Shown here one piece after another: positions 1-31,116 of a DNA stretch of 35,190 nt; the stretch's first letter is position 1, and each line of letters begins with the position of its first letter. A model generated the notes under the pieces. That model was not told where the DNA came from and searched no databases. It saw only the letters and a list, made by a program, of their open reading frames with translations. Origin of the DNA: a virus. Lineage: Duplodnaviria; Heunggongvirae; Uroviricota; Caudoviricetes. Where the stretch lies: the IMG/VR virus record IMGVR_UViG_3300034102_002786, positions 82,413-117,602 of that record. One strand, written 5' to 3'. The translations under genes were made by a program, and so were the position numbers.

Positions 1-2
1 AC

Positions 3-503
3 GCTACCCACATTTTTGCGTGTTCTTTGGAGAACGAATGGGATTATGAAGATTTGATAGGTAATGTTGATTCTGAACTTGGTTCTATTGAAGGTTATTC
101 AACTTACACAAAAAGTGACCCGAATGAATTAAGGTCATTTCCATCTCGTTCAATTTGTTCTATTGAGCGTGATTTTCAATACAAAGATTTCAGTTTAGAA
201 GTAGTTCTTACCGCTGTTGTACGTTCAGGTTACTATGAAGGTTGTAACTTAGATTGGCACGTTTGGTATGGTATCAATGGTAACCAATGTGATTTAGATG
301 ATATTGAAAGAACTTTGGAATGGGATACTAACCTTTCCAATTCACAACGATTAGCTTATTCTTTATTGGCTAACAAAAAAGCAGTAAAGATTACGGATGA
401 AATAGTAGAAGAAGTTGAGAAAGTGTTTGGTAACTATACCGATAAGTATGGAGTTACTGCCCGATTTTCAAATGGTGAAACAATTTATCATAAAGTTGCA
501 TAA
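3..503 (+). CDS. hypothetical protein, probably 5'-truncated by window edge
   Basis: Frame of ORF 27..503 stays open to position 3; no ATG near 27. Confidence 0.75.
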   Translation, partial: ATHIFACSLENEWDYEDLIGNVDSELGSIEGYSTYTKSDPNELRSFPSRSICSIERDFQYKDFSLEVVLTAVVRSGYYEGCNLDWHVWYGINGNQCDLDDIERTLEWDTNLSNSQRLAYSLLANKKAVKITDEIVEEVEKVFGNYTDKYGVTARFSNGETIYHKVA

Positions 504-504
504 T

Positions 505-666
505 ATGAAATCAGTATTTGACATTAAAGTAACCACTGTAGGTGGAGATTCGTTTAACCTTAAAGGTGTTCCGTATTCTACGGTAACTCAATTATCATAT
601 CAGATATTGACGATTAAGAATATTGAGATTGTAAAAGAGTATTTCAAAAAAGAAACTAAATATTAA
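505..666 (+). CDS. hypothetical protein (53 aa)
   Basis: ATG 505 directly after upstream TAA; MKSVFDIKVTTVGG. Confidence 0.7.
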   Translation: MKSVFDIKVTTVGGDSFNLKGVPYSTVTQLSYQILTIKNIEIVKEYFKKETKY

Positions 667-669
667 ACT

Positions 670-888
670 ATGGCTATTAAAAAGAAAGTGAGTAAGTCCA
701 CTATTGAAATTGACTTAACAGGACCTGATGGTAACGCATTTATGTTAATTGGTAGAGCTGGTAATTTAGCTAAGCAATTAGGATTGGACAAAGCTAAAAT
801 TCAAGCTGAAATGATGAGTGGTGATTACGAACATTTAGTAGCAACATTCGATAAGTATTTCGGACATTTTGTAACCTTATATAGATAA
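670..888 (+). CDS. conserved phage hypothetical protein (IDLTGPDGNAF motif)
   Basis: Tight packing, biased codons, motif recalled from phage hypotheticals. Confidence 0.8.
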   Translation: MAIKKKVSKSTIEIDLTGPDGNAFMLIGRAGNLAKQLGLDKAKIQAEMMSGDYEHLVATFDKYFGHFVTLYR

Positions 889-892
889 TACA

Positions 893-1234
893 ATGAGAAG
901 ATTTCGTTCACACTATCCACCTGTATCATTCCAAGGTACATTCAGTAACCAATGGTATGTTATATGTAGTTCCGATGGTGATGGTTGGGTAAAAGTAGAT
1001 AGGAGTTATAGATGGGATGAGTTGGAAAAGGTTTGGGATAAGATTGAGTATGGTGTTAAAGCTAAAGTAACTCCTGTTAAGAAAGAACGTAAGGAATATA
1101 AAGTAGCAGGTAGTAAAGGTAATACCTACAAAGTGATAAATGATGACGGTGTTTGGACTTGTAGTTGTCCTGCGCACGGTTTCGGACGTGGTAAAGATTG
1201 TAAACACATTGTTCAGATAAAAAATAAAAAATAA
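893..1234 (+). CDS. SWIM zinc-finger protein
   Basis: C-terminal WTCSCPAHGFGRGKDCKHI = CxC...CxH SWIM signature. Confidence 0.85.
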   Translation: MRRFRSHYPPVSFQGTFSNQWYVICSSDGDGWVKVDRSYRWDELEKVWDKIEYGVKAKVTPVKKERKEYKVAGSKGNTYKVINDDGVWTCSCPAHGFGRGKDCKHIVQIKNKK

Positions 1235-1238
1235 GTAT

Positions 1239-1484
1239 ATGAATTACAATTACACAGCGCCAAATGGCATTAGTTATTTTGAAGTAGAAGAAAGTAACCT
1301 GCGTGCAGAAAAATCTATGAGTGATTTTGGTGGAGCCAATATGTGGAACTTATATGTTAAAACTTCAAATGGCCGTTGGGAAGATGTACAATGGATGAAC
1401 GTATATAGGATTCAAGAGTTTTTCAAAACAAAACTTCCTGTATATAACGAACAAGAAAGTAAACAAAAATATTCATTAAAATAA
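1239..1484 (+). CDS. hypothetical protein
   Basis: ORF track, operon packing. Confidence 0.75.
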   Translation: MNYNYTAPNGISYFEVEESNLRAEKSMSDFGGANMWNLYVKTSNGRWEDVQWMNVYRIQEFFKTKLPVYNEQESKQKYSLK

Positions 1485-1495
1485 AAATTAAAGTT

Positions 1496-1915
1496 ATGGG
1501 ATTTTTTAGTTGGAAAACAATGGACACTGATAAGAGTATCAGTAACGAATCCTCTGTTAGAGGTACATTCCGAGTTCAAATGATGGATGATAAAGGTAAT
1601 GTTTGGACCGAAGATAACTATGAAGGTTATGGTGTATTTGGTGGTAAGGATTATTATGAATTACTTGCCGAAATGAATGGAGTAACTTCAGATTTGAAAG
1701 GTGAGAAATATACCAATTATATGAGAGGTGAGGGTATTGGTATTGCTTTCAAAGAAAATGGAAGTGGTGACCATACATTCGCAGTTAAGTATCCTAACTT
1801 AGTAGAAGAAGCTAAGGGTTGGAGATACAATTACTATGGACCTGATAGTTGTGAATCACAGGGATACTTTTACGATGATGAAGATTACGATGGCGAAGAT
1901 GATTATGAATCATAA
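1496..1915 (+). CDS. hypothetical protein with acidic tail
   Basis: ORF track; AAATTAAAGTTATG start context. Confidence 0.8.
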   Translation: MGFFSWKTMDTDKSISNESSVRGTFRVQMMDDKGNVWTEDNYEGYGVFGGKDYYELLAEMNGVTSDLKGEKYTNYMRGEGIGIAFKENGSGDHTFAVKYPNLVEEAKGWRYNYYGPDSCESQGYFYDDEDYDGEDDYES

Positions 1916-1926
1916 AATATAGTAGA

Positions 1927-2121
1927 ATGAAGAATACGCTTAAACAACGAACCTACAAATGTAAATGTGGGGCACTAACAAAGGAATATGTTTGGGATAA
2001 TGATTTGGATAAAACTAAAGTTAATTGTAGTGAATGTTCAAAGCAACTTACAAATAAAAATTTGGTAAGTACAAACATAAATTGGGCAGCTAGTATTAGA
2101 ACGCCAACAAAGAATAGATAA
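1927..2121 (+). CDS. small zinc-ribbon protein (FmdB-like)
   Basis: YKCKCG...CSEC cysteine pairs. Confidence 0.65.
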   Translation: MKNTLKQRTYKCKCGALTKEYVWDNDLDKTKVNCSECSKQLTNKNLVSTNINWAASIRTPTKNR

Positions 2122-2153
2122 TAAATTATAAAATAAAAATTAAAAATTAAGTT

Positions 2154-2606
2154 ATGGGATTAGACATGTATTTAAGTAAAAAGACGTATGTAAAGTATTG
2201 GGAGCACAATGGTGATAACAATTATGATGTTAAGGTCACTAAAGCTGGTAACCCTACAAACATTAACCCAAAGAAGGTAAGTTATATTGTAGAAGAAGTT
2301 GGGTATTGGAGAAAAGCAAACGCCATTCATCAATGGTTTGTGGATAACTGCCAGGGTGGTGTTGATGATTGTAGAGATGCCTATGTTAGTAGAGAGAATT
2401 TAGAGCAATTACTTAACCTTTGTAAGATTGTTAGTATTGATAACGATAAAGCTGAACAATTACTACCAACTGCTTCCGGATTTTTCTTTGGTGGTACTGG
2501 TTATGATGAGTGGTACTATGAAGGTATTAATAGTACAATAGAAATTTTAGAAGAAGCTCTTAGTGATGGAGATGCTGATGAGTTTTCATATCATTCAAGT
2601 TGGTAA
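2154..2606 (+). CDS. conserved phage protein, MGLDMY/YWRKANAIH family
   Basis: Motifs MGLDMYL, YWRKANAIHQWF, GFFFG, YHSSW. Confidence 0.8.
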   Translation: MGLDMYLSKKTYVKYWEHNGDNNYDVKVTKAGNPTNINPKKVSYIVEEVGYWRKANAIHQWFVDNCQGGVDDCRDAYVSRENLEQLLNLCKIVSIDNDKAEQLLPTASGFFFGGTGYDEWYYEGINSTIEILEEALSDGDADEFSYHSSW

Positions 2607-2624
2607 TATTAAAAACAAATTTAT

Positions 2625-3206
2625 ATGGGAGTAGATATATACGGCAGAAAGCCAATAGTAAAATCGGAAAGACCTGACCAAATAGATTATCAGGCTTCAA
2701 CCGATGACCAAAAACAAAAGTATTGGAATAAAGTAGATGAATGGGAAGAAGAAAATCCTGGCGTTTACTTTCGTTCTAATTGGTGGGGTTGGAGACCTAT
2801 TTGTATGTTATGTGAAATAGCAAACGATAAGTACAAACTCAAAATGAATATGGACCATTGGGGTTCAAATGATGGTAAAGGGCTTCGTACACAAAAGCAA
2901 TGTGATAAGTTAGCAGATGCATTGGAATTGATGTTGACTAATGATAGTGGTTACAATGAGTTTATGGCCGAAGATGATGACCGTATTCAGATAGTGATGG
3001 GTAGCTGGGTAAAGAGTGGTACAGGTCAATTCTATTCGGATGAGAACTTAGAATTGCAACAACAATATGAATATGGTACTATCCTTTACAACCCTATTGT
3101 TACAAAGAAAGGTGAGTTGGTTGAATCAGCTCATAGTTGTTCATTAGCACATATCAAGCGTTGGATTAATTTCCTTAGAGCTTGTGGTGGATTTAAAATT
3201 TGGTAA
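2625..3206 (+). CDS. conserved phage protein, MGVDIY/YFRxNWWxWRP family
   Basis: Motifs MGVDIYG, YFRSNWWGWRP, FLRACGGFKIW. Confidence 0.8.
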   Translation: MGVDIYGRKPIVKSERPDQIDYQASTDDQKQKYWNKVDEWEEENPGVYFRSNWWGWRPICMLCEIANDKYKLKMNMDHWGSNDGKGLRTQKQCDKLADALELMLTNDSGYNEFMAEDDDRIQIVMGSWVKSGTGQFYSDENLELQQQYEYGTILYNPIVTKKGELVESAHSCSLAHIKRWINFLRACGGFKIW

Positions 3207-3209
3207 GTT

Positions 3210-3617
3210 ATGGCAAAATTATTTGAAAGTGAATTTCACAAAGGAGTTATGGTAGCTGTGATTGAAGCCGGAGATTATCAGTATCAGGTCTTAGCACCAC
3301 TATTTAATGATTATGGATATGGATTTGTAGCGCCTGACCAAAAGTTGATATTCATTGATGGTAATCAACATAAATCAATATACAAAATCGTAGAGGCTCA
3401 CGAAGTAGCACATATCATTCTCAATCATACAGGTATTAAAGGACCAAACGATGAAGTTGAAGCAGATAGTTTGGCTATGGTATTGTTGAGAAAATATGGA
3501 TACTATGATGAAGCTAACATACTAATTCGTGAATTTAAAAAGAGACATGGTTATTCATATAACCACATTAAAAATAAACAAAATAAACTTAAAGCACATG
3601 CCTACACAAACTTTTGA
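3210..3617 (+). CDS. HExxH metallopeptidase-like protein (ImmA/IrrE-like)
   Basis: AHEVAHIIL followed by EVEADSLA. Confidence 0.7.
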   Translation: MAKLFESEFHKGVMVAVIEAGDYQYQVLAPLFNDYGYGFVAPDQKLIFIDGNQHKSIYKIVEAHEVAHIILNHTGIKGPNDEVEADSLAMVLLRKYGYYDEANILIREFKKRHGYSYNHIKNKQNKLKAHAYTNF

Positions 3618-3882
3618 TTTTTTTATAGACCGTAAGGTAACAATTTGGCAAAGAGAGTTCCACACAATTAAAGCTGAATCTTTAGATGATGCTAAAGCAG
3701 AAATGGCAGCTCGTTTTCACGATAATATGTGTGTTGATACTTTCGATGAGCAAGAAACACTATTCGAAACAGAAGAGTATTTGGAGCCGGGTGATAATGG
3801 TGGTAACCCAACTGCCGAATTGTATAGTGAAGAAGATGGACAATTAATAACTACAAACATAGATTTGTTAGATTCAAAATAA
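3598..3882 (+). CDS. acidic hypothetical protein
   Basis: Likely ATG 3598 (MPTQTFDFF) within ORF 3529..3882. Confidence 0.75.
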   Translation: MPTQTFDFFIDRKVTIWQREFHTIKAESLDDAKAEMAARFHDNMCVDTFDEQETLFETEEYLEPGDNGGNPTAELYSEEDGQLITTNIDLLDSK

Positions 3883-3895
3883 TTTCGTATATTTG
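3864..3895 (+). promoter_or_regulatory. Bacteroidota-type sigma promoter
   Basis: TTTG 3864-67, 20 bp, TATATTTG 3888-95. Confidence 0.75.
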
Positions 3896-3908
3896 TAAAA
3901 ACCCCTTT

Positions 3909-4517
3909 ATGAAAAGATTAAGTAAAAACGATAAAGCATTCATTCAGTTTGTTAAGGATGAGTGTAAGAGATTGGGTATAAAGACCCATATTAAAGATGT
4001 GAAGTATGTAAAACTTTCCGGTAACATTAGATGTAGTGGATACTTTGATGATGTAGATGCTATCTTAGCATGTTCAATGGGTAAGTCGGATGGATTGGAA
4101 ATATTGGTACACGAATATTGTCACCTTACACAATGGCAAGATGGTTTGCATTTATGGAAAAAAGCAGGTAGAGCATTGCCTGTTATTGATGAGTGGTTGG
4201 AAGGTAAGTACAAAAGACCTCAAACGTTGGAAAACGCTTTCAATATCGCTATTCAGTTGGAAAGGGATAATGAAATGAGAAGTGTAAGAATGATTAACGA
4301 ATGGGGATTGAGTATTGATACCGATAAGTACATTAAGAAAGCTAATAGTTACTTGATGTTCTATAATTGGATGAAGCAAACTCGTAGATGGTGTAAACCA
4401 AACAATATGCCATACCACAATAAGAAAGTTGTAGCAGCAATGCCAACAAACTTTAAGTTGGATTATAGTAAGTTACCTAAAAGATTTGAAACAATTTATA
4501 GAGAAGAAAATATTTAA
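3909..4517 (+). CDS. HExxH metallopeptidase-like protein
   Basis: ILVHEYCHLTQW plus downstream LERDNE. Confidence 0.7.
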   Translation: MKRLSKNDKAFIQFVKDECKRLGIKTHIKDVKYVKLSGNIRCSGYFDDVDAILACSMGKSDGLEILVHEYCHLTQWQDGLHLWKKAGRALPVIDEWLEGKYKRPQTLENAFNIAIQLERDNEMRSVRMINEWGLSIDTDKYIKKANSYLMFYNWMKQTRRWCKPNNMPYHNKKVVAAMPTNFKLDYSKLPKRFETIYREENI

Positions 4518-4518
4518 T

Positions 4519-4890
4519 ATGGGAAAACTAAAAGAAAAGTTACTCAATAACCTAACGCCGGAAGAAATGGATGAACGATTTGGAATTTCGGCATTTGAAT
4601 ATGTAGAATATATGGAAAATTACAAACAATACAAACAAGTATCACTATTTGATGATAATGGTGACCTAATGCCCAACGATGTATTAGATAAAATGCTCAT
4701 AGAAAGAGAGCAATTAGAAAACGAATATTATCAGCAATCTGAAATTGATGACATCAACGATAGTATAAAATTGAAGTACACAGATAATGATATTTTATAT
4801 GTATTAGATGGGTTGGCAGGACCCGTTTTGACCCGTATGATACTGGATAAATTAAGGGGTGTTTGGAATACCAAAAATGGTGTAGAATAG
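4519..4890 (+). CDS. hypothetical protein
   Basis: Likely ATG 4519 (MGKLKEKLL). Confidence 0.75.
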   Translation: MGKLKEKLLNNLTPEEMDERFGISAFEYVEYMENYKQYKQVSLFDDNGDLMPNDVLDKMLIEREQLENEYYQQSEIDDINDSIKLKYTDNDILYVLDGLAGPVLTRMILDKLRGVWNTKNGVE

Positions 4891-4996
4891 CCCGTTTTTA
4901 TTCGTTTCCTGATGGTTTTGGGTGCTGGGCTGGGTATTGACCTTATATTCAAAAAGACCCCCTAAAATCGGTTAAAAATGGCATAATATATATTGA

Positions 4997-5058
4997 ATTG
5001 ATAATCAACACGTTACGTGAGGTTTTTGAGACACCCGGCTAACGTGTTGATTATCAAT
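4997..5058. repeat. motif cluster 1: perfect 19-bp inverted repeat
   Basis: ATTGATAATCAACACGTTA (4997-5015) and TAACGTGTTGATTATCAAT (5040-5058), 24-bp spacer. Confidence 0.95.
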
Positions 5059-5088
5059 AAAATTTTTTTGAAGATTTTTCCCTAAAAA

Positions 5089-5130
5089 TTTGGTAGTTTC
5101 GGGTATTATTTGTAGTTTTACTATATAAAA
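5089..5130 (+). promoter_or_regulatory. Bacteroidota-type promoter, TTTA variant
   Basis: TTTG 5089-92, 20 bp, TAGTTTTA 5113-20, then CTATATAAAA. Confidence 0.7.
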
Positions 5131-5138
5131 TTAAGATT

Positions 5139-5498
5139 ATGAGTTTACCTTTTGACCCGATTAGGGTATTTGAAACCGCTCCATTGATTGAGGGTTATGA
5201 TGTTATTAAAAATTCTTTCCCCGTTGTAGGTAAGTACACGGGTAGAGTTATTACTTACGCCGATGCAGTATATTCGGCATTGGAATCCTTAACTGAAGAT
5301 TATTCAGATTGGCCGGAAGACCAGGGGTTTGGTAGTTCAGATATGACCTATGCTCGTCAAAATTTCATTGATACAATGATTAGTTTGGCTAACCTTAATG
5401 GTTACTATACTACCGATTTCAAACCTTACTTAAAGGTTGTTGAATATTCGGAAGCTGAATATCACGAAACGATGTTGCGTAGGGAGCAAGGTATCTAA
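5139..5498 (+). CDS. hypothetical protein
   Basis: ORF track; first gene after promoter. Confidence 0.8.
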   Translation: MSLPFDPIRVFETAPLIEGYDVIKNSFPVVGKYTGRVITYADAVYSALESLTEDYSDWPEDQGFGSSDMTYARQNFIDTMISLANLNGYYTTDFKPYLKVVEYSEAEYHETMLRREQGI

Positions 5499-5520
5499 TT
5501 AACAAATAAAAATTAAGTAT

Positions 5521-5817
5521 ATGAATAGTAATGTAACACAATATGAAATGGACGGTAGAAACCGAGTAGTTTCTGAATTAGAAAACGAATTCGCTGTATT
5601 GAATATATGCGATGTTTGGGATTGGTTCAAAGTTAGTTTGAATGTTGATATTATGGAATTGGATTGGAATGGTGAATGTGAACACATTCTAAAGTTTTGT
5701 GAAAATTTCAGATTGTATCTTTACGAAGTGCCTGGTGAAAACTTTTATGAGTGGGAAGGTATTGAGAAGGCAAAGAGTATGGGTTATAAAGGTGTAATAT
5801 TAAGTTCATTAAGTTAA
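5521..5817 (+). CDS. hypothetical protein
   Basis: ORF track; AAATTAAGTATATG start context. Confidence 0.8.
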   Translation: MNSNVTQYEMDGRNRVVSELENEFAVLNICDVWDWFKVSLNVDIMELDWNGECEHILKFCENFRLYLYEVPGENFYEWEGIEKAKSMGYKGVILSSLS

Positions 5818-5835
5818 TAAATAAAAATTAAGTAT

Positions 5836-6075
5836 ATGGCAAATTTGTATGAAGTAGAAGGATTTTATGGTACCCGAAATAGAGGTACTATTTTTGTTTA
5901 CGAAACATACAGCGGTAAACGCTGGTATTGTGTTGAAGGTAGTTGTAATATCAATTGTACCTATGATGAGATTAACGAAGGATGTAACGTTGAGAGGTTA
6001 TCGGACATTGATACAATGAGTAGTAGAAATGGTATAAACTCGGTGAGAGAGTTATACGATTATGTAATAAGTTAA
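5836..6075 (+). CDS. hypothetical protein
   Basis: ORF track; AAATTAAGTATATG start context. Confidence 0.8.
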   Translation: MANLYEVEGFYGTRNRGTIFVYETYSGKRWYCVEGSCNINCTYDEINEGCNVERLSDIDTMSSRNGINSVRELYDYVIS

Positions 6076-6086
6076 AAATAAATTTT

Positions 6087-6254
6087 ATGATACAACCAAA
6101 AGAAAGTAATTCAAAGAGCCACTTTTACATTTCTGTAACTAAAAGTGGTTTTCGTTTAGGTGCATGTTACGGATTATTTGTAGGTGACCTTTTCACAGCC
6201 GCTGTGTTATTCGCTGTAGCTGAAGTATTAGGAATAGCTGAAGAAATTTTTTAA
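6087..6254 (+). CDS. small membrane protein (55 aa), absent from ORF track
   Basis: Manual translation MIQPKESNSKSHFYISVTKSGFRLGACYGLFVGDLFTAAVLFAVAEVLGIAEEIF; fills gap exactly. Confidence 0.75.
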   Translation: MIQPKESNSKSHFYISVTKSGFRLGACYGLFVGDLFTAAVLFAVAEVLGIAEEIF

Positions 6255-6256
6255 AT

Positions 6257-6976
6257 ATGAAAAACTATCAAATAAAAGAAGTTAAAGATAGAGTGTTCGC
6301 TGTTATCATACCCAACCATTATGATAGGGCTATGACATTTTGTAGAGTACAGGAATTTTATGAATCACCTAACCCTGATTTTAGAGGTAAGCACTTTAAC
6401 ATTTGGGATTTTATTGAATGGTATAGTAAAGAGCATAGAGATGCTTTTACTTACGCATTTGATTGGGGTGGATTTAATATACCACTACCAATAGCTTGGG
6501 AATGTTACGAAGGTACTGAAAAACCTAAAAAGAAAAATGGGTTTGTAAATGGTGTTCGTTCTATGCCTGATAATTGGAAAAGTAAATGGGATGGTGTGAT
6601 GAAAGATATTGTATGGAATGTTCAAAGCCGTATGTTCAATAAAAAGAATAAAAGGGATATGAACGCTTATATTATTGGAGCTAACGATACTGAAAGTGAT
6701 ACTTTTATGCACGAAGTTTGTCATGGTTTATATTATACCAACAAAGAGTATAAGGAATTGATGGATGAAATTACCGATGCTATTCCTTTGGATATTCGTA
6801 TGAAATTCAGAAACAACCTAATAGATATGGGATATACCGATAGTGTGGTGTACGATGAGATTCAGGCGTATCTAACTTGGCATAGTGAGTACACAAAGTT
6901 CGCTCAAGGTGTATCTAAAAAGATTCTTAAACAATTAAACAAAGAATACCAAAAGGTGTTCAACAAATATTTATAG
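6257..6976 (+). CDS. HExxH-containing conserved phage protein
   Basis: TFMHEVCHGLY and later DEIQAY. Confidence 0.7.
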   Translation: MKNYQIKEVKDRVFAVIIPNHYDRAMTFCRVQEFYESPNPDFRGKHFNIWDFIEWYSKEHRDAFTYAFDWGGFNIPLPIAWECYEGTEKPKKKNGFVNGVRSMPDNWKSKWDGVMKDIVWNVQSRMFNKKNKRDMNAYIIGANDTESDTFMHEVCHGLYYTNKEYKELMDEITDAIPLDIRMKFRNNLIDMGYTDSVVYDEIQAYLTWHSEYTKFAQGVSKKILKQLNKEYQKVFNKYL

Positions 6977-6978
6977 GT

Positions 6979-7170
6979 ATGGATGGATTAACAATTTTAT
7001 TGATATGGATTCTTCTAAGCTTTCCGATTGTAAGACACGTTAATAGGAGAATGGAAGAAACCGAAGATGACCTTAGATTTAGGACATCATTTCAATTAAT
7101 ATTATTCATTAGAGCCCAATTTGAAGTACCAAAATGGTATTTACTTAGGCTTATAAAATTATTAAAATGA
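6979..7170 (+). CDS. small membrane protein
   Basis: Hydrophobic N-terminal helix. Confidence 0.7.
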   Translation: MDGLTILLIWILLSFPIVRHVNRRMEETEDDLRFRTSFQLILFIRAQFEVPKWYLLRLIKLLK

Positions 7171-7547
7171 GAAAAAAGAAACTAACCGCTGGTGAAAAAG
7201 CAATTAGAGTGAATGAGCAACGATTTGCTATGACTATAATTCTATGTAACCTATTAGAAGCTGAGAATGGTGTAAGTATGATTATAAAATCCGCAACCGC
7301 AGCATCTCTTATCAATATGATGGAGATGAGTATGATTGATGGTGATGATGATGGATTAAAAAATCTTATCAATAACGCTATTGACCAGTTTTGTTATGAA
7401 GTAGAAACAAAGCATGAAGTAGAGAATTATCGTAGTAGATTGATGGAAAGTGTTTTGGCATCTAGAAAATTGGTAGATGAAATTAAACAAAAAATTGGAA
7501 GAATTAAAGAAGGTGAAGATATACTTAAAAATATTTGTTTAAATTAA
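7167..7547 (+). CDS. hypothetical protein
   Basis: ORF track; ATGA overlap with upstream stop. Confidence 0.8.
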   Translation: MRKKKLTAGEKAIRVNEQRFAMTIILCNLLEAENGVSMIIKSATAASLINMMEMSMIDGDDDGLKNLINNAIDQFCYEVETKHEVENYRSRLMESVLASRKLVDEIKQKIGRIKEGEDILKNICLN

Positions 7548-7552
7548 AACTT

Positions 7553-7864
7553 ATGGCTACAATTAAAAAATTAGCAAGAGTGGTTAATACTTCAATCGAA
7601 GGAGAACCACAACACGCAGCCCTTCAGATTATAGAGACTAATAGAATATTTCAATTTTCAGAAGTGAAATATATTTTAGAGGGTGGTTCGGTAATACAAT
7701 TAGAAACTAGAATGAACGATAATGATTTGTACCAACCAACCATTCAGAAAATTTTAAATCAAGGGCATACAATAGAGGTTTCTTATTTTGAACCAACCGA
7801 AGGTCAATTATCACCTGACCAATTTCGGTATAATATGGACATAGATTTAACACTTCATTTTTAA
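7553..7864 (+). CDS. hypothetical protein
   Basis: Likely ATG 7553 (MATIKK). Confidence 0.75.
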   Translation: MATIKKLARVVNTSIEGEPQHAALQIIETNRIFQFSEVKYILEGGSVIQLETRMNDNDLYQPTIQKILNQGHTIEVSYFEPTEGQLSPDQFRYNMDIDLTLHF

Positions 7865-10023: not shown

Positions 10024-10332
10024 ATGAAAACTAAAAACAATAATGAAATTTATTTAGGTAGTTATGGATACTTAAATATAAAAACATCTGAAACTGTTGA
10101 AGCTAAAAATTTATTAAGGTTAAAAGTTGGAGATGATAAATACGAAATTTTAGAAGTAAAAATCTTAGCCGATTTCAGTAAAATACCTGATAAGTACCAC
10201 GAGGTTTTTTTAAATATGTTTAGTTCAAAGTATATGGATTCGGTTTCATTTGGTGATAACCCATTTTCACAATGTGTTCCACCACCAAAGAAAAGATGGT
10301 GGGAATTTTGGAAAGCTAATTTAAATATATAA
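10024..10332 (+). CDS. hypothetical protein, paralog of 21905..22216
   Basis: Shared ADFxxIPxxxH motif. Confidence 0.75.
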   Translation: MKTKNNNEIYLGSYGYLNIKTSETVEAKNLLRLKVGDDKYEILEVKILADFSKIPDKYHEVFLNMFSSKYMDSVSFGDNPFSQCVPPPKKRWWEFWKANLNI

Positions 10333-11303
10333 TGAAAATTACAGTTGTAGTTAGAACTTATAATAGGCCTGATTTTTTAAGAGAGGCTTTAGCATCAATA
10401 CAATTACAAACCCATCCTAATTGGGAAGTATTGATATTTGATGATGCTGCATCTGATATTAATTTTTCTATTTACAAAAAATTTAAATCTAATAATTTAG
10501 ATAAAAGAGTTTTATATTTAACAAGTCAGAGTGAATATGAACTATTTAAAAATTCTTGGCTATTAGCTCCAGATTTGGCAAATGGTGAAGTTATAGTCAG
10601 GTTAGATGATGATGATATGCTAACCGAAGATGCTTTAGAATTTGTAAATGAGATTTATGAAAAAAATAAAGAATTAGAATTCACTTATGGTTCTAGCGTA
10701 TTCTTTAAAGATAAAGATTTACAAAATTTAATATCTACAAAAAATCCATTCGAACACCCACCAAGCAGAGATATTTGGGCTCCTTATACAATTCCAAACA
10801 ACCACCCGTGGAGAGAACCTTGGACATTCATACAAAATTTTTATGACCAACCAAAAAACTATACATCAATAATACACGCAGCTAAAGCAAATGCATTTTG
10901 TATATACCATACCTATACAATGAGAACTGAATCTGTTAAACGTGTTAAAGATAAAATAACCGTAACGTCTAATTTTGTTGATGATTTGGAATTTTTAGGA
11001 AGTTTGGATAATCTAAGTTTGGGATACAATTCTGTAAAAAAGATTTTGTGTTATGTAAGAATACACGATTTGGGTAGAGTAACTGATAATGGTAGAGTAA
11101 CGGATAATACAAATATGTGGCAAGAAAACTTTAGAGTTAGAGACAAAGTTGATGAGCTAAGAAGTTCCGGCTTTATTTCAAAAATAATTCCTATCCAATC
11201 TGATAAAAATAAAAATGATGAGATTAATGATGAGCTAAAAGCTACATTTTTAACCTATATTGATAAAATACAGCCTATTGCTAACTCATTGATAATCAAT
11301 TAG
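10332..11303 (+). CDS. glycosyltransferase family 2
   Basis: ITVVVRTYNRPDFLREALASI, FDDA, RLDDDD. Confidence 0.88.
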   Translation: MKITVVVRTYNRPDFLREALASIQLQTHPNWEVLIFDDAASDINFSIYKKFKSNNLDKRVLYLTSQSEYELFKNSWLLAPDLANGEVIVRLDDDDMLTEDALEFVNEIYEKNKELEFTYGSSVFFKDKDLQNLISTKNPFEHPPSRDIWAPYTIPNNHPWREPWTFIQNFYDQPKNYTSIIHAAKANAFCIYHTYTMRTESVKRVKDKITVTSNFVDDLEFLGSLDNLSLGYNSVKKILCYVRIHDLGRVTDNGRVTDNTNMWQENFRVRDKVDELRSSGFISKIIPIQSDKNKNDEINDELKATFLTYIDKIQPIANSLIIN

Positions 11304-11325
11304 TTATAACTTATTGAAAATCAAC
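11280..11325. repeat. motif cluster 2: two tandem copies overlapping the GT2 stop
   Basis: GCTAACTCATTGATAATCAAT (11280-300) and TAACTTATTGAAAATCAAC (11307-25). Confidence 0.8.
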
Positions 11326-11345
11326 CGATTACAACCAAAAAATTA

Positions 11346-11389
11346 TTTGGTAATTTCAGGTATTTTTCGTATCTTTACTATGTAATAAA
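11346..11389 (+). promoter_or_regulatory. promoter, TATCTTTACTATGTAATAAA class
   Basis: TTTG 11346-49, 20 bp, TATCTTTA; 20-mer identical at 25955 and 28220. Confidence 0.8.
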
Positions 11390-11398
11390 GTCAAAGAT

Positions 11399-11827
11399 AT
11401 GAACACGAAACACCCTATTTCAGCTCAGAATTTAGTTCACTTAATCAACAAAGAAGGTAAAAAATTGAGTGGTGCTCCCTTTACTATTCGAAGTAAAAAG
11501 ACTGGTAAAGATTATACTTTTAAAGTATCGCAAGCACTATTCAATAACATTAACTACCTACATTTGAAAGTAGAGATTCAGTATCTTAATTTCAAATATA
11601 TGGGTTGGTACAAAGATGGTAAAGTGATTAACAAAAAAGTAGAAGTTAAAACACCCGCTTCTGAAGCTATTAGTTGGTTTATGAAAATGTTACTTACTAA
11701 CCGATTTGACGTGTTGGATACCAATGTTGATATTTTCCACTTAGGTAAATGTTTGAAGTGTGGTAAAACTTTAACCGATGCTAACTCAATCGAAGTTGGT
11801 TTTGGTCCTGTATGTAGAAATTTCTAA
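11399..11827 (+). CDS. DUF6011-like zinc-finger protein
   Basis: C-terminal CLKCGKTLTDANSIEVGFGPVC. Confidence 0.75.
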   Translation: MNTKHPISAQNLVHLINKEGKKLSGAPFTIRSKKTGKDYTFKVSQALFNNINYLHLKVEIQYLNFKYMGWYKDGKVINKKVEVKTPASEAISWFMKMLLTNRFDVLDTNVDIFHLGKCLKCGKTLTDANSIEVGFGPVCRNF

Positions 11828-25456: not shown

Positions 25457-25630
25457 ATGCTTTCCGAAAACGAAATGATTCAAAGGGCCGCCGTTATTGG
25501 TATGGACGAAGAGGTAATCAGTTATGCTAAACAAATTCAACGTCAGCTTTCAGCAGAAGGTGATACGGCAGAATGGTTGGATTGCTTAGAGATGGCCTAT
25601 AACGAATTGATTCTCAATCAGTTACACTAG
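25457..25630 (+). CDS. hypothetical micro-protein (57 aa)
   Basis: Manual translation MLSENEMIQRAAVIGMDEEV...LNQLH. Confidence 0.7.
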   Translation: MLSENEMIQRAAVIGMDEEVISYAKQIQRQLSAEGDTAEWLDCLEMAYNELILNQLH

Positions 25631-25722: not shown

Positions 25723-25895
25723 GGCTAACCTGTTGGTTTTCAATCGCTTATGGAATGTTATATAACGTATATTATGTTAAGTCACCAACACGCTGATTAT
25801 CAATCGGTTAGCTCGAAAAAAGGGGTGTTTTTCTTATATAATATATTATGTTAAATAGGACACCCGAGGCGGGGCGCAACGTGTTGATAACCAAT
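25723..25895. repeat. motif cluster 3: three degenerate copies
   Basis: GGCTAACCTGTTGGTTTTCAAT (25723-44), inverted GCTGATTATCAATCGGTTAGC (25792-812), GCAACGTGTTGATAACCAAT (25876-95). Confidence 0.8.
25755..25782. other. dif-like Xer recombination site
   Basis: ATGTTATATAA-CGTATA-TTATGTTAAGT: 11-6-11 layout, right arm 10/11 and spacer 5/6 identical to E. coli dif. Confidence 0.7.
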
Positions 25896-25931
25896 GGTTT
25901 ATACTTTTTTAAAAAATAATTGTAAAAAGTC

Positions 25932-25974
25932 TTTGCTATTTCAGGAATTTTACCTATCTTTACTATGTAATAAA
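25932..25974 (+). promoter_or_regulatory. promoter, TATCTTTACTATGTAATAAA class
   Basis: TTTG 25932-35, 19 bp, 20-mer 25955-74. Confidence 0.8.
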
Positions 25975-25984
25975 GATTGAAAAT

Positions 25985-26197
25985 ATGAGTTCCGTATTAA
26001 ACGTTAAGTTCGAATCAGAAGCCCAAATTAAGGCCATTACCAAAATGTTAAGTTCTATTTTCGGATGTCAGGTCCGCCCACGTGGTAGACATAGTAACCG
26101 AAAAGCTGTATTGGGTTACCGTTGGATGAGAGGTACTCAAAACGATATTCCGTGGAGAATGGCGGAGCGTGTTTCATTTTATACTATTTCTAAATAA
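25985..26197 (+). CDS. hypothetical basic protein
   Basis: ORF track; first gene after promoter. Confidence 0.75.
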   Translation: MSSVLNVKFESEAQIKAITKMLSSIFGCQVRPRGRHSNRKAVLGYRWMRGTQNDIPWRMAERVSFYTISK

Positions 26198-27879: not shown

Positions 27880-27908
27880 AAGGATACCAAAAAGGTATCC
27901 TTTTTTTA
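27880..27908 (+). terminator. intrinsic terminator
   Basis: AAGGATACC / GGTATCCTT stem then T-run. Confidence 0.85.
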
Positions 27909-27983: not shown

Positions 27984-28165
27984 GCTAACTAACACGTTAG
28001 CAAATATCGTATGTAAAAAACAGCAATGTAATTCCGTTTCTTTCACGTTATCCCTTATTTTACCGGTCCCGTCTTCTTAGGGCCCTATATTGAAAATAGT
28101 CACAAATTGTACTCGAGCTAACTAGTTGATTATCAATAGGCCGGGCTAACGTGTTGATTATCAAT
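27984..28165. repeat. motif cluster 4: palindromic half-site pair plus two direct copies
   Basis: GCTAAC-TAACAC-GTTAGC (27984-28001); GCTAACTAGTTGATTATCAAT (28117-37); GCTAACGTGTTGATTATCAAT (28145-65). Confidence 0.9.
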
Positions 28166-28195
28166 AAAGAATTTTTAAAGATTTCGTGGAAAATA

Positions 28196-28239
28196 TTTGG
28201 CCATATCGGCTAACTGCCCTATCTTTACTATGTAATAAA
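28196..28239 (+). promoter_or_regulatory. promoter, TATCTTTACTATGTAATAAA class
   Basis: TTTG 28196-99, 20 bp, 20-mer 28220-39. Confidence 0.8.
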
Positions 28240-28240
28240 A

Positions 28241-28558
28241 ATGATAAATATGTATAACGAAAACCCCTTCAGACAGTTCTCCGCTAGTAAAATGAGTAAT
28301 AACCCCCGTTTCAACGTATCGGTTGAATATACGGACTTTATGGGTAATACTCACCGTATCCAATGTAAGACACGTAAAGCCCTTAATTCGGCTCGTGAGT
28401 TCCTTAGTATCTTTAAAGCTGAATCTACAGCGATTAATAAGATATTGGGTGAATACCCCGTTAAGATGGGTAAGTTCCCTAAGAAGTTCCACTCGGAAAT
28501 TAAGAGTGACCTTCAGGCCGCTGGTTTCGGTACTATTTCTAAATACCTTTTAAAATAA
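28241..28558 (+). CDS. hypothetical protein
   Basis: ORF track; start 28241 or 28250. Confidence 0.8.
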   Translation: MINMYNENPFRQFSASKMSNNPRFNVSVEYTDFMGNTHRIQCKTRKALNSAREFLSIFKAESTAINKILGEYPVKMGKFPKKFHSEIKSDLQAAGFGTISKYLLK

Positions 28559-30300: not shown

Positions 30301-30705
30301 AATACTCTTAGTATATACCCATGTAACATAGACCCGATGTGGGTTGCATGGCATGGGTGATACATATTGATACATACCTATTCCTATGCAACCGTTGGTA
30401 GCAGTGGGTTGCATGAGACGGGACGGGGGGGACTGAATTTCTTGTGACTGAGAAAATAAAAGTTTGGCATGACCCACGCCTATGCCGTTTCCGCCCCGAG
30501 CCCGGTTTTTTCCCGTATAGGATTTTTATAGGGTAAGGTAGTACCTAGCCTGCCTTAATAGGGTGGACCTCTATCAATTTAGCTATTTCCCTTTTAGGAT
30601 GGATTAGACCCCCTTATTTTTGATGGTTTCGGTATGGGGTGTATATTGGGGTGGTTTTATGGTAAAGCTCGGGAAATCACAGTAAAACCATATAATATGT
30701 ATCTC

Positions 30706-30767
30706 TTTAATAATCAATAGGTTAGCTCGGGTTTAGAGCGGGCCCGGCTAACGTGTTGATTATCAAT
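30706..30767. repeat. motif cluster 5: inverted pair
   Basis: TTTAATAATCAATAGGTTAGC (30706-26) and GCTAACGTGTTGATTATCAAT (30747-67); same 20-bp inner spacing as cluster 1. Confidence 0.9.
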
Positions 30768-30788
30768 GAGGAATTTTTGGGGTTTTTC

Positions 30789-30832
30789 ATTGCTATATGG
30801 GTATTTTTTCGTATCTTTGGTATGTTAATAAA
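30789..30832 (+). promoter_or_regulatory. Bacteroidota-type promoter
   Basis: ATTG 30789-92, 19 bp, TATCTTTG 30812-19, GTATGTTAATAAA. Confidence 0.7.
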
Positions 30833-30858: not shown

Positions 30859-31116
30859 ATGAAAAGTTTTAAAGTTTCAGATGGTAAGGTAATGGTAGAT
30901 GGTGTCCTTTATGGTACTACTCCTATTAATGATGTAAAGGTTAGGGGTAAGGTAGGTACTATCCATTCTATCAACATTGAAGGTAGAGGTCAGTTCTTCC
31001 CTATTAGTGGGTTATTCAACGATGGTTCTATAAAGGTTGTTGATTCTACTACTGATGTATTGGATGTGGATGTAAAAGTAGAAAAGAAGAAAAGGGCTAA
31101 AAAGAGTTCTAAGTAA
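30859..31116 (+). CDS. hypothetical protein with basic tail
   Basis: ORF track. Confidence 0.8.
   Translation: MKSFKVSDGKVMVDGVLYGTTPINDVKVRGKVGTIHSINIEGRGQFFPISGLFNDGSIKVVDSTTDVLDVDVKVEKKKRAKKSSK

Follow-up and report, generated by a model that had tools for sequence, protein, structure and literature searches.

A 25-bp palindrome shared with Cytophagales chromosomes lies upstream of one promoter subclass in an uncultured phage

The window analysed here, a stretch of 35,190 nucleotides, is the final 35 kb of a 117,602-bp IMG/VR virus record (G000), which is 53% complete according to CheckV and has a G+C content of 33%. All genes of the window are on the + strand. Five clusters of a repeated sequence lie along it, described in an earlier note as 11 copies of a ~21-bp motif with a GCTAAC flank. 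The five clusters and all of these copies were found, together with a twelfth copy at 25600-25624. The motif is real, and upon reading the flanks at every core match, the full repeat unit proved to be a 25-bp palindrome, TAAC-N3-TTGAT-W-ATCAA-N3-GTTA, of which the 21-mer is a part and GCTAAC an outer arm. Two forms of it are present. In the symmetric form, spacers are mostly TCA or TGA, and neighbours often abut exactly, at 25-bp spacing. The asymmetric form, also common, consists of one outer arm and an A/T tract; it spans ~32 bp, (G)GC-TAAC-GTG-TTGATWATCAAT-AAAGAATTTTT, is found in either orientation and is in most cases the most promoter-proximal copy.

The first cluster is an inverted pair. 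Its distal arm (4991-5015) has the outer GTTA arm on the right and a CAC spacer, i.e. the GTG type reversed, and is kept in homologous regions of three contigs. The promoter-proximal arm (5040-5064) is an asymmetric copy, GCTAAC-GTG-TTGATTATCAAT and then an A/T tract, centred 61 bp before the -7 box and kept in a relative; segments 4997-5015 and 5040-5058 form a perfect 19-bp inverted repeat, as had been stated. The promoter behind them, TTTG-N20-TAGTTTTA (5089-5120, + strand), precedes an ORF at 5139-5498 and has an orthologue in the syntenic relative G001 described below. In the second cluster, a palindrome without mismatch (11282-11306) overlaps the stop of a glycosyltransferase ORF (10332-11303) and is abutted, exactly 25 bp on, by a second copy with 2 mismatches (11307-11331), centred 51 bp before the -7 box; the pair has an orthologue in G001. 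Its promoter, TTTG-N20-TATCTTTA with the leader CTATGTAATAAA (11346-11377, + strand), precedes ORF 11399-11827. The third cluster comprises a degenerate copy whose core accounts for two of its 3 mismatches (25726-25750), a copy with 2 mismatches facing it (25786-25810), and a promoter-proximal copy of GTG type with 3 mismatches (25877-25901), centred 66 bp before the -7 box of promoter TTTG-N19-TATCTTTA, which has the leader CTATGTAATAAA (25932-25962, + strand) and precedes ORF 25985-26197. The twelfth copy, which has 1 mismatch, is within the 3' end of ORF 25457-25630. Two copies, this one and 11282-11306, therefore touch gene ends, where a single such case had been reported.

The fourth cluster is a direct pair with 28-bp spacing, an arrangement also seen in viral locus L020. 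Its first copy (28119-28143) is followed by a promoter-proximal GTG-type copy and then AAAGAATTTTT (28147-28171), centred 61 bp before the -7 box of promoter TTTG-N20-TATCTTTA, with leader CTATGTAATAAA (28196-28227, + strand), ahead of ORF 28241-28558. In the fifth, an inverted pair, a distal copy with 2 mismatches (30700-30724) and a promoter-proximal GTG-type copy (30749-30773), centred 51 bp before the -7 box, precede ORF 30859-31116; the -7 box itself, TATCTTTG (30812-30819, + strand), was read from the sequence and lacks the canonical TTTG at -33. Two further regularities were seen around the copies. A GTG spacer with a GC-rich left flank and AAAGAATTTTT as right flank recurs at 5040-5075, 28147-28182 and 30749-30785 of the window and at 77887 and 82273 of the genome. 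An ATAATAT(A/G)TAT box stands ahead of the distal copy in several clusters (4975-4995 and 30686-30700 in the window, 1800-1807 in the genome).

The repeat is far from randomly distributed. With at most 3 mismatches over the 19 defined positions, the 25-mer was counted 12 times in the window, against 0.05 in shuffles, and 23 times in the whole record, against 0.15 expected. The core TTGATWATCAA alone, with at most 1 mismatch, occurs 13 times in the window where 2.7 are expected, a count reached in 0/100 shuffles, and the previously proposed 21-mer, at 3 mismatches or fewer, matches 27 places in the record and none for the reversed control. Copies of the record make up 11 promoter-upstream clusters plus one gene-end copy. 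Taking 24 site centres, namely the 23 copies and a site with 4 mismatches at 82273, 21 are outside ORFs (p=2e-18). The view of these copies as non-random, intergenic cis-elements placed upstream of promoters is thus supported.

A promoter of the Bacteroidota type, TTTG-N19-21-TAnnTTT[AG], was found behind every cluster, in agreement with the earlier reading. These promoters belong to a particular subclass. Only ~10 of the 44 non-coding gaps of at least 90 bp in the record contain copies, and their occupation is associated with TAnnTTTA / CTATGTAATAAA promoters. The last base of the -7 box is A, where the consensus has G, in 8/11 cassette promoters compared to 5/18 promoters without cassette (Fisher p=0.027), and the leader CTATGTAATAAA is found in 5/11 of the former and 0/18 of the latter (p=0.004). 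Promoters with the perfect consensus TATATTTG are mostly cassette-free and occur in tight junctions. Promoters of this kind overlap the end of the gene before them or directly adjoin it; for instance, a -7 box at 3888 follows a stop at 3882 (window 3882-3895). The genes behind cassettes are small ORFans, and no DNA-binding domain was found in the genes adjoining cassettes. The leader is invariant and directly 3' of the -7 box at 11378-11389, 25963-25974 and 28228-28239 of the window, and at 77976 and 82362 of the genome; it may represent a transcript 5' end that is conserved, or an additional binding site.

Distances from the end of the last copy to the -7 box were reproduced (55, 45, 60, 55 and 45 bp), and it had been proposed from them that cassettes are placed in helical phase. 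This was not borne out: the Rayleigh test gave p=0.17 for the five clusters of the window, and p=0.78 for the 11 clusters of the record. Across these 11 clusters, the centre of the proximal copy is 41-69 bp away from the -7 box. Promoter distances thus span 28 bp without phase, which speaks against stereospecific activation.

We then compared the record with G001, a 101-kb contig which is a syntenic relative with ~70-80% nucleotide identity in aligned blocks. It contains 13 copies, whose clusters again precede promoters of this subclass, orthologous to those of the record. Within aligned orthologous spacers, identity was 70% for the sites and 72% for the promoter cores, against 48% for other spacer DNA. 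This alignment supports purifying selection on the sites in the relative. Four homologous modules of the 4997 type were also aligned: both arms are conserved islands, and the intervening loop has indels. In homologues, TGG or TCA is found in place of the GTG spacer, and at one orthologous site the asymmetric proximal unit has opposite orientations in the two genomes.

The same comparison bears on the suggestion that the cassettes serve in recombination, as crossover sites for a site-specific or homology-driven exchange of modules, like the promoter-stem-loop (PeSL) modules of T4-like phages or integron attC sites. Like the cassettes, PeSL modules are repeated, promoter-linked and placed between small early-type genes, and two clean swaps were indeed found at a cassette plus promoter, at genome positions 82354 and 87525 (window 5113). 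In both, the upstream gene, the cassette and the promoter are kept in G001, and the downstream gene is different. Moreover, cassette-plus-promoter modules are paralogous over ~100-200 bp, and therefore usable for homologous recombination, and the inversion of the proximal unit between orthologous loci would fit as well. However, gene order is broken between the two genomes at 37 of 88 junctions, and breaks are not in excess at cassettes: in this comparison with a single relative, based on crude gene calls, 5/9 cassette junctions were broken compared to 32/79 others (Fisher p=0.48), and most rearrangements are at tight, cassette-free gene junctions. The proposed link between cassettes and gene-content breakpoints is not significant, which is one difference from PeSL modules. 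Neither tyrosine nor serine recombinases (PF00589, PF00239) were found in G000, G001 or two motif-bearing phages that are 96-100% complete (G002 and G003). Single symmetric 25-mers and direct tandem arrays are unlike the attC architecture, and, in contrast to PeSL modules, the element is common to host chromosomes and its hairpin formation is not conserved. A role as recombination cassette, as the earlier note had also envisaged, is thus highly improbable.

At 77,000-90,000 of the genome (window 1-7,600), G000 and G001 differ by a dense shuffling of small-gene modules, with many breaks at gene junctions 2-25 bp wide in which no repeat is visible.

We also examined where else the palindrome is present. 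Among viruses, the GTG-type 19-mer was found in 54 IMG/VR stretches, and the form with any spacer in at least 118; a megablast search with 8 kb of the window gave no match among INPHARED phages. Among bacteria, at least 120 matches to the exact 25-bp pattern were found in GTDB species genomes. Nearly all of the matches listed are from Bacteroidota (Microscillaceae, Saprospiraceae, Emticicia, Bernardetiaceae, Chryseobacterium, Dokdonia, Prevotella), to which Fibrobacterota are to be added. Copies were then counted at 2 mismatches or fewer, with the forward pattern compared to a reversed-pattern control. The Microscillaceae MAG Prado074 (G009, 6.8 Mb) contains 3,285 copies against 4 for the control, i.e. 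about one per 2 kb (example loci L066, L077, L113 and L125); Emticicia has 84 versus 0, Chryseobacterium 12 versus 1, Dokdonia 6 versus 0 and Fibrobacter 4 versus 0. An even sample of Cytophagales, the order of this MAG, gave 78 positive genomes among 120 others, usually with 1-30 copies and at most 217, for a total of roughly 900 matches against 36 in the control. Sampled evenly over the whole phylum, genomes yielded ~52 matches against 24, and never more than 3 each. The phage density, ~1 per 5 kb, is comparable only to that of the richest host genomes.

As in the phage, bacterial sites are intergenic (200/204 distinct sites outside ORFs). Tandem, divergent and convergent gaps are occupied in near-random proportion, and no fixed distance to a promoter was found: over 120 listed loci, a consensus promoter lay within 300 bp in 11/434 oriented cases. 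Genes flanking the conserved low-copy sites of Fibrobacter and Dokdonia are unrelated, and therefore gave no lead to an autoregulated regulator.

A side observation concerns DnaA boxes. Paired DnaA boxes (TTATCCACAAGTTATCCACA) adjoin the GTG-type site in 15/72 contexts from one group of viral contigs (loci L009, L014, L038, L041, L045, L050-L053 and L062). DnaA boxes are rare beside the motif elsewhere (1/140 other viral contexts; 1/271). In G000, one half-site and one DnaA box are present at 67107-67146 of the genome, before the first promoter of the small-RNA row.

The earlier note had proposed, among other options, an undescribed phage regulon. The dispersion of the palindrome in Cytophagales chromosomes and in many unrelated viral contigs speaks against this idea, and makes a phage-private regulator unnecessary. 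A version of it can nevertheless be formulated, in which a phage-encoded activator or repressor binds the palindromes, especially their GTG variant, and times one class of promoters, the bacterial copies being unrelated users. The tight link to one promoter subclass would be accounted for, arrays of 2-3 sites resemble operator arrays, and the gene of the binder could lie in the missing half of a record that is 53% complete. In addition, TAACGTGTTGATWATCAAT is enriched in phages: it is present in 7 of ~24 arms of the phage and in the 54 viral stretches, and, like the GTG variant with its GC-rich left flank, it has no exact match among the more than 3,000 copies of the Microscillaceae MAG. This near absence from host copies hints at some extra specificity on the phage side. 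Yet the same 25-mer pattern and the same spectrum of N3 spacers are common to bacteria and unrelated phages, and the GTG spacer is not stable among homologues. Furthermore, sites are upstream of the promoter, with centres 41-69 bp before the -7 box, rather than over its core, and the adjoining genes, devoid of DNA-binding domain, offer no candidate regulator. We therefore hold a phage-encoded regulator to be quite unlikely.

We next asked whether the copies behave as duplex DNA sites or as hairpins. In the phage, mirror positions do not covary, neither in G000 nor in IMG/VR copies. Likewise, the N3 spacers of inverted arms show no covariation, and their complementarity is lost across the four homologous 4997-type modules. 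Upon folding, two inverted pairs were strong (-29.5 and -34.3 kcal/mol, z about -6 relative to shuffles), and three of the five clusters of the window were no better than shuffles. Since mirror positions do not covary, phage copies are best viewed as double-stranded DNA sites and not as hairpins. What is conserved in the phage is the duplex sequence, in either orientation, which points to a symmetric DNA-binding protein.

Terminators were considered and set aside: a scan reported no intrinsic terminator at the clusters, and in the two inverted pairs the U run is offset from the stem. A canonical GC-stem terminator is present on the + strand at 27880-27902, ~200 bp upstream of the 28119 cluster, so that termination near this cluster is attributable to a separate element. 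Rfam and tRNA scans of the window gave no match.

Bacterial copies gave a less uniform picture, which brings in another explanation, namely a REP- or MITE-like palindrome, selfish or structural, whose function, if any, would be exerted at the hairpin level (protection of 3' ends, termination, cruciforms). Mirror spacer positions covary modestly in bacteria (z=2.5-4.5). A minority of copies are terminator-like, 14% having at least 4 bp of additional palindromic flank and ~16% having T or A runs, and several of these are just 3' of tRNA genes. In NPL-UPA2 MAG-914, the palindrome is inside a MITE-like repeat of ~150 bp with inverted ends (CACGAGTTACGCA), which terminates many contigs (loci L063, L065, L074, L081, L084, L119, L160 and L170); no transposase was found near it. 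The strong folding of two inverted pairs of the window, and above all a copy number ranging from 0 to 3,285 among related genomes, are in line with such an element.

As regards REP elements and BIMEs of Proteobacteria, including the IHF-binding RIP and RIB, they resemble the present palindrome in being short and extragenic, in numbering from a few to thousands with uneven counts between relatives, and in having some copies that are terminator-like hairpins. A link to RAYT genes was rejected. RAYT genes (PF01797) are absent from 2 of the 5 motif-rich genomes, and only one match, with 3 mismatches, lies within ~1.5-2 kb of any of the six genes found, so that RAYT genes do not adjoin the palindromes. 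Moreover, the palindrome is A/T-rich and has no GTAG or CGTC tag, and unlike REP or BIME elements, it is found in phage genomes, where it is conserved before one promoter subclass. In the phage, the lack of covariation, the shuffle-like folding of three of five clusters, the separate terminator ahead of one of them, and the asymmetric proximal copies, for which a long hairpin is impossible, all stand against a hairpin-level function. So do the occupation of ~10 gaps out of 44, restricted to one promoter subclass, and the conservation of copies at orthologous positions. In bacteria, head-to-head gaps are occupied at chance frequency, which does not favour a hairpin function either. All in all, we consider a selfish or structural palindrome an unlikely explanation.

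If the copies are duplex sites for a symmetric protein, a candidate can be proposed from the half-site. Each half reads W-ATCAA-N4-TTA, and thus matches the E. coli consensus WATCAANNNNTTR of IHF, a proteobacterial heterodimer. In IHF complexes, the DNA is kinked at two places separated by 9 bp; WATCAR lies between them, and TTR is in the flank (10.1101/382655). In a logo of bacterial copies, which is biased towards the pattern as it was built after the filter of 2 mismatches or fewer, hardly any variation is seen in the core and the TAA/TTA ends, and the adjoining C/G is conserved at ~75%, as expected if this position belongs to the N4 of the IHF consensus. The IHF sites of λ pL, Mu Pe and ilvPG are, as here, upstream of promoters of the sigma-70 family, their consensus WATCAANNNNTTR is equal to each half-site of the palindrome, and the H' site of λ combines a consensus half with an A/T tract, like the asymmetric copies. 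At ilvPG, the effect of IHF is independent of orientation and phase, which resembles the situation of the cassettes. The present sites differ from IHF sites in their symmetric double consensus and in their Bacteroidota setting, and they are predicted sites only.

We know of no classical IHF heterodimer in Bacteroidota. The HU/IHF protein family is, as far as is known, present throughout the phylum, and the motif is strongly enriched in part of it only, which counts against this candidate. No PF00216 gene was found in G000 and five motif-bearing viral records, two of which are 96-100% complete. Five motif-rich Cytophagales were searched too: three of them have a single PF00216 gene, Emticicia has three, and the Microscillaceae MAG gave a weak partial match. 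A single gene would imply a homodimer, with a preference for palindromes. The one HU/IHF-family protein compared in genome G257 (L308:1465-1737) is about equally similar to IHF and to HU. The arm tip of this protein and of its Emticicia counterpart (L306) reads RNI-SKNT, compared to RNP-xTG in IHF and HU, so that an isoleucine replaces the intercalating wedge proline in the candidate host protein, which also weighs against an IHF-type binder. Between one and three HU/IHF proteins of a classical-like type have been described in Bacteroidota, and one of them acts in CTnDOT integration (PMC5499826).

The binder cannot be named from the core alone, because its 11-mer TTGATTATCAA is also the operator core of FabT, a repressor of the MarR family, and a winged-helix dimer could therefore read it as well. 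The FabT operator of streptococci, ANTTTGATTATCAAATT, differs from the palindrome in that it belongs to another phylum, lacks the outer TAAC/GTTA arms and governs a small metabolic regulon instead of thousands of copies. FabT was also the only relevant entry in the literature on this 11-mer. Another comparison is offered by KorA and KorB of IncP plasmids, where one palindrome is reused at many promoters with variable upstream distances, as here. These operators are bound by proteins that the plasmid encodes; no such element-encoded binder was seen here, and the sites are abundant in host genomes.

A more specific possibility can be put forward, which we hold only tentatively. Cytophagales, and some neighbouring lineages, may possess an undescribed architectural protein with sequence specificity, possibly a single HU-family homodimer with an isoleucine wedge. 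A palindromised IHF consensus would serve as its high-affinity site, thousands of copies of which would have accumulated in some genomes, and large phages of these hosts would have built this site into dedicated sub-consensus promoters.

The explanation that we favour, and to which we give about an even chance, is that a palindrome shared with the host is kept before one promoter class so that a dimeric host protein, which probably bends DNA, can dock there. The cassettes are a 25-bp palindromic element common to this phage, other uncultured phages and bacterial chromosomes, those of Cytophagales above all, which are probably the host lineage. Phage copies would act as double-stranded sites for a symmetric dimer, most likely encoded by the host, and selection would keep arrays of one to three of them, whose centres precede the inferred start sites by ~53 to 81 bp. 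The promoters served would be those whose -7 box, TAnnTTTA, falls short of the consensus and whose leader is CTATGTAATAAA. An HU/IHF-type DNA bender is the best candidate, because the half-site is exactly the IHF consensus WATCAA-N4-TTR. Its effect would be architectural, helping or insulating weaker promoters independently of orientation and helical face. A copy number of 0 to 3,285 within one order speaks against this explanation, as it looks more like a selfish repeat than like the sites of a regulator. We infer protein binding, host encoding, likeness to HU/IHF and the direction of the effect from sequence comparisons. The motif, its distribution, its association with promoters, its conservation and the lack of hairpin covariation in phages are direct observations. 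The cassette is therefore a real and conserved cis-element linked to promoters, and amounts to the use by a phage of a palindrome of its probable host lineage.

In the literature on Bacteroidetes REP elements and on BHFa and IHF, which provides background, we found this palindrome nowhere described. New in this study are its distribution in host genomes, its link to a promoter subclass, the results on conservation and covariation, and the negative results on phasing, breakpoints, RAYT genes and recombinases. The initial idea is corrected accordingly: the cassettes are neither a private phage regulon in helical phase nor, on present evidence, a hot spot of recombination. Transcription control in phages of Bacteroidota is almost unexplored, and a host-factor site at about a dozen promoters would offer a handle on temporal or host-dependent control in giant uncultured phages. 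The palindrome is also a possible sequence signature linking such phages to Cytophagales hosts. If an undescribed architectural host protein is indeed involved, the expression of phage genes would depend on it, as might host range, and the palindrome would be the first recognition sequence to be defined in Bacteroidota for a protein of the nucleoid type.
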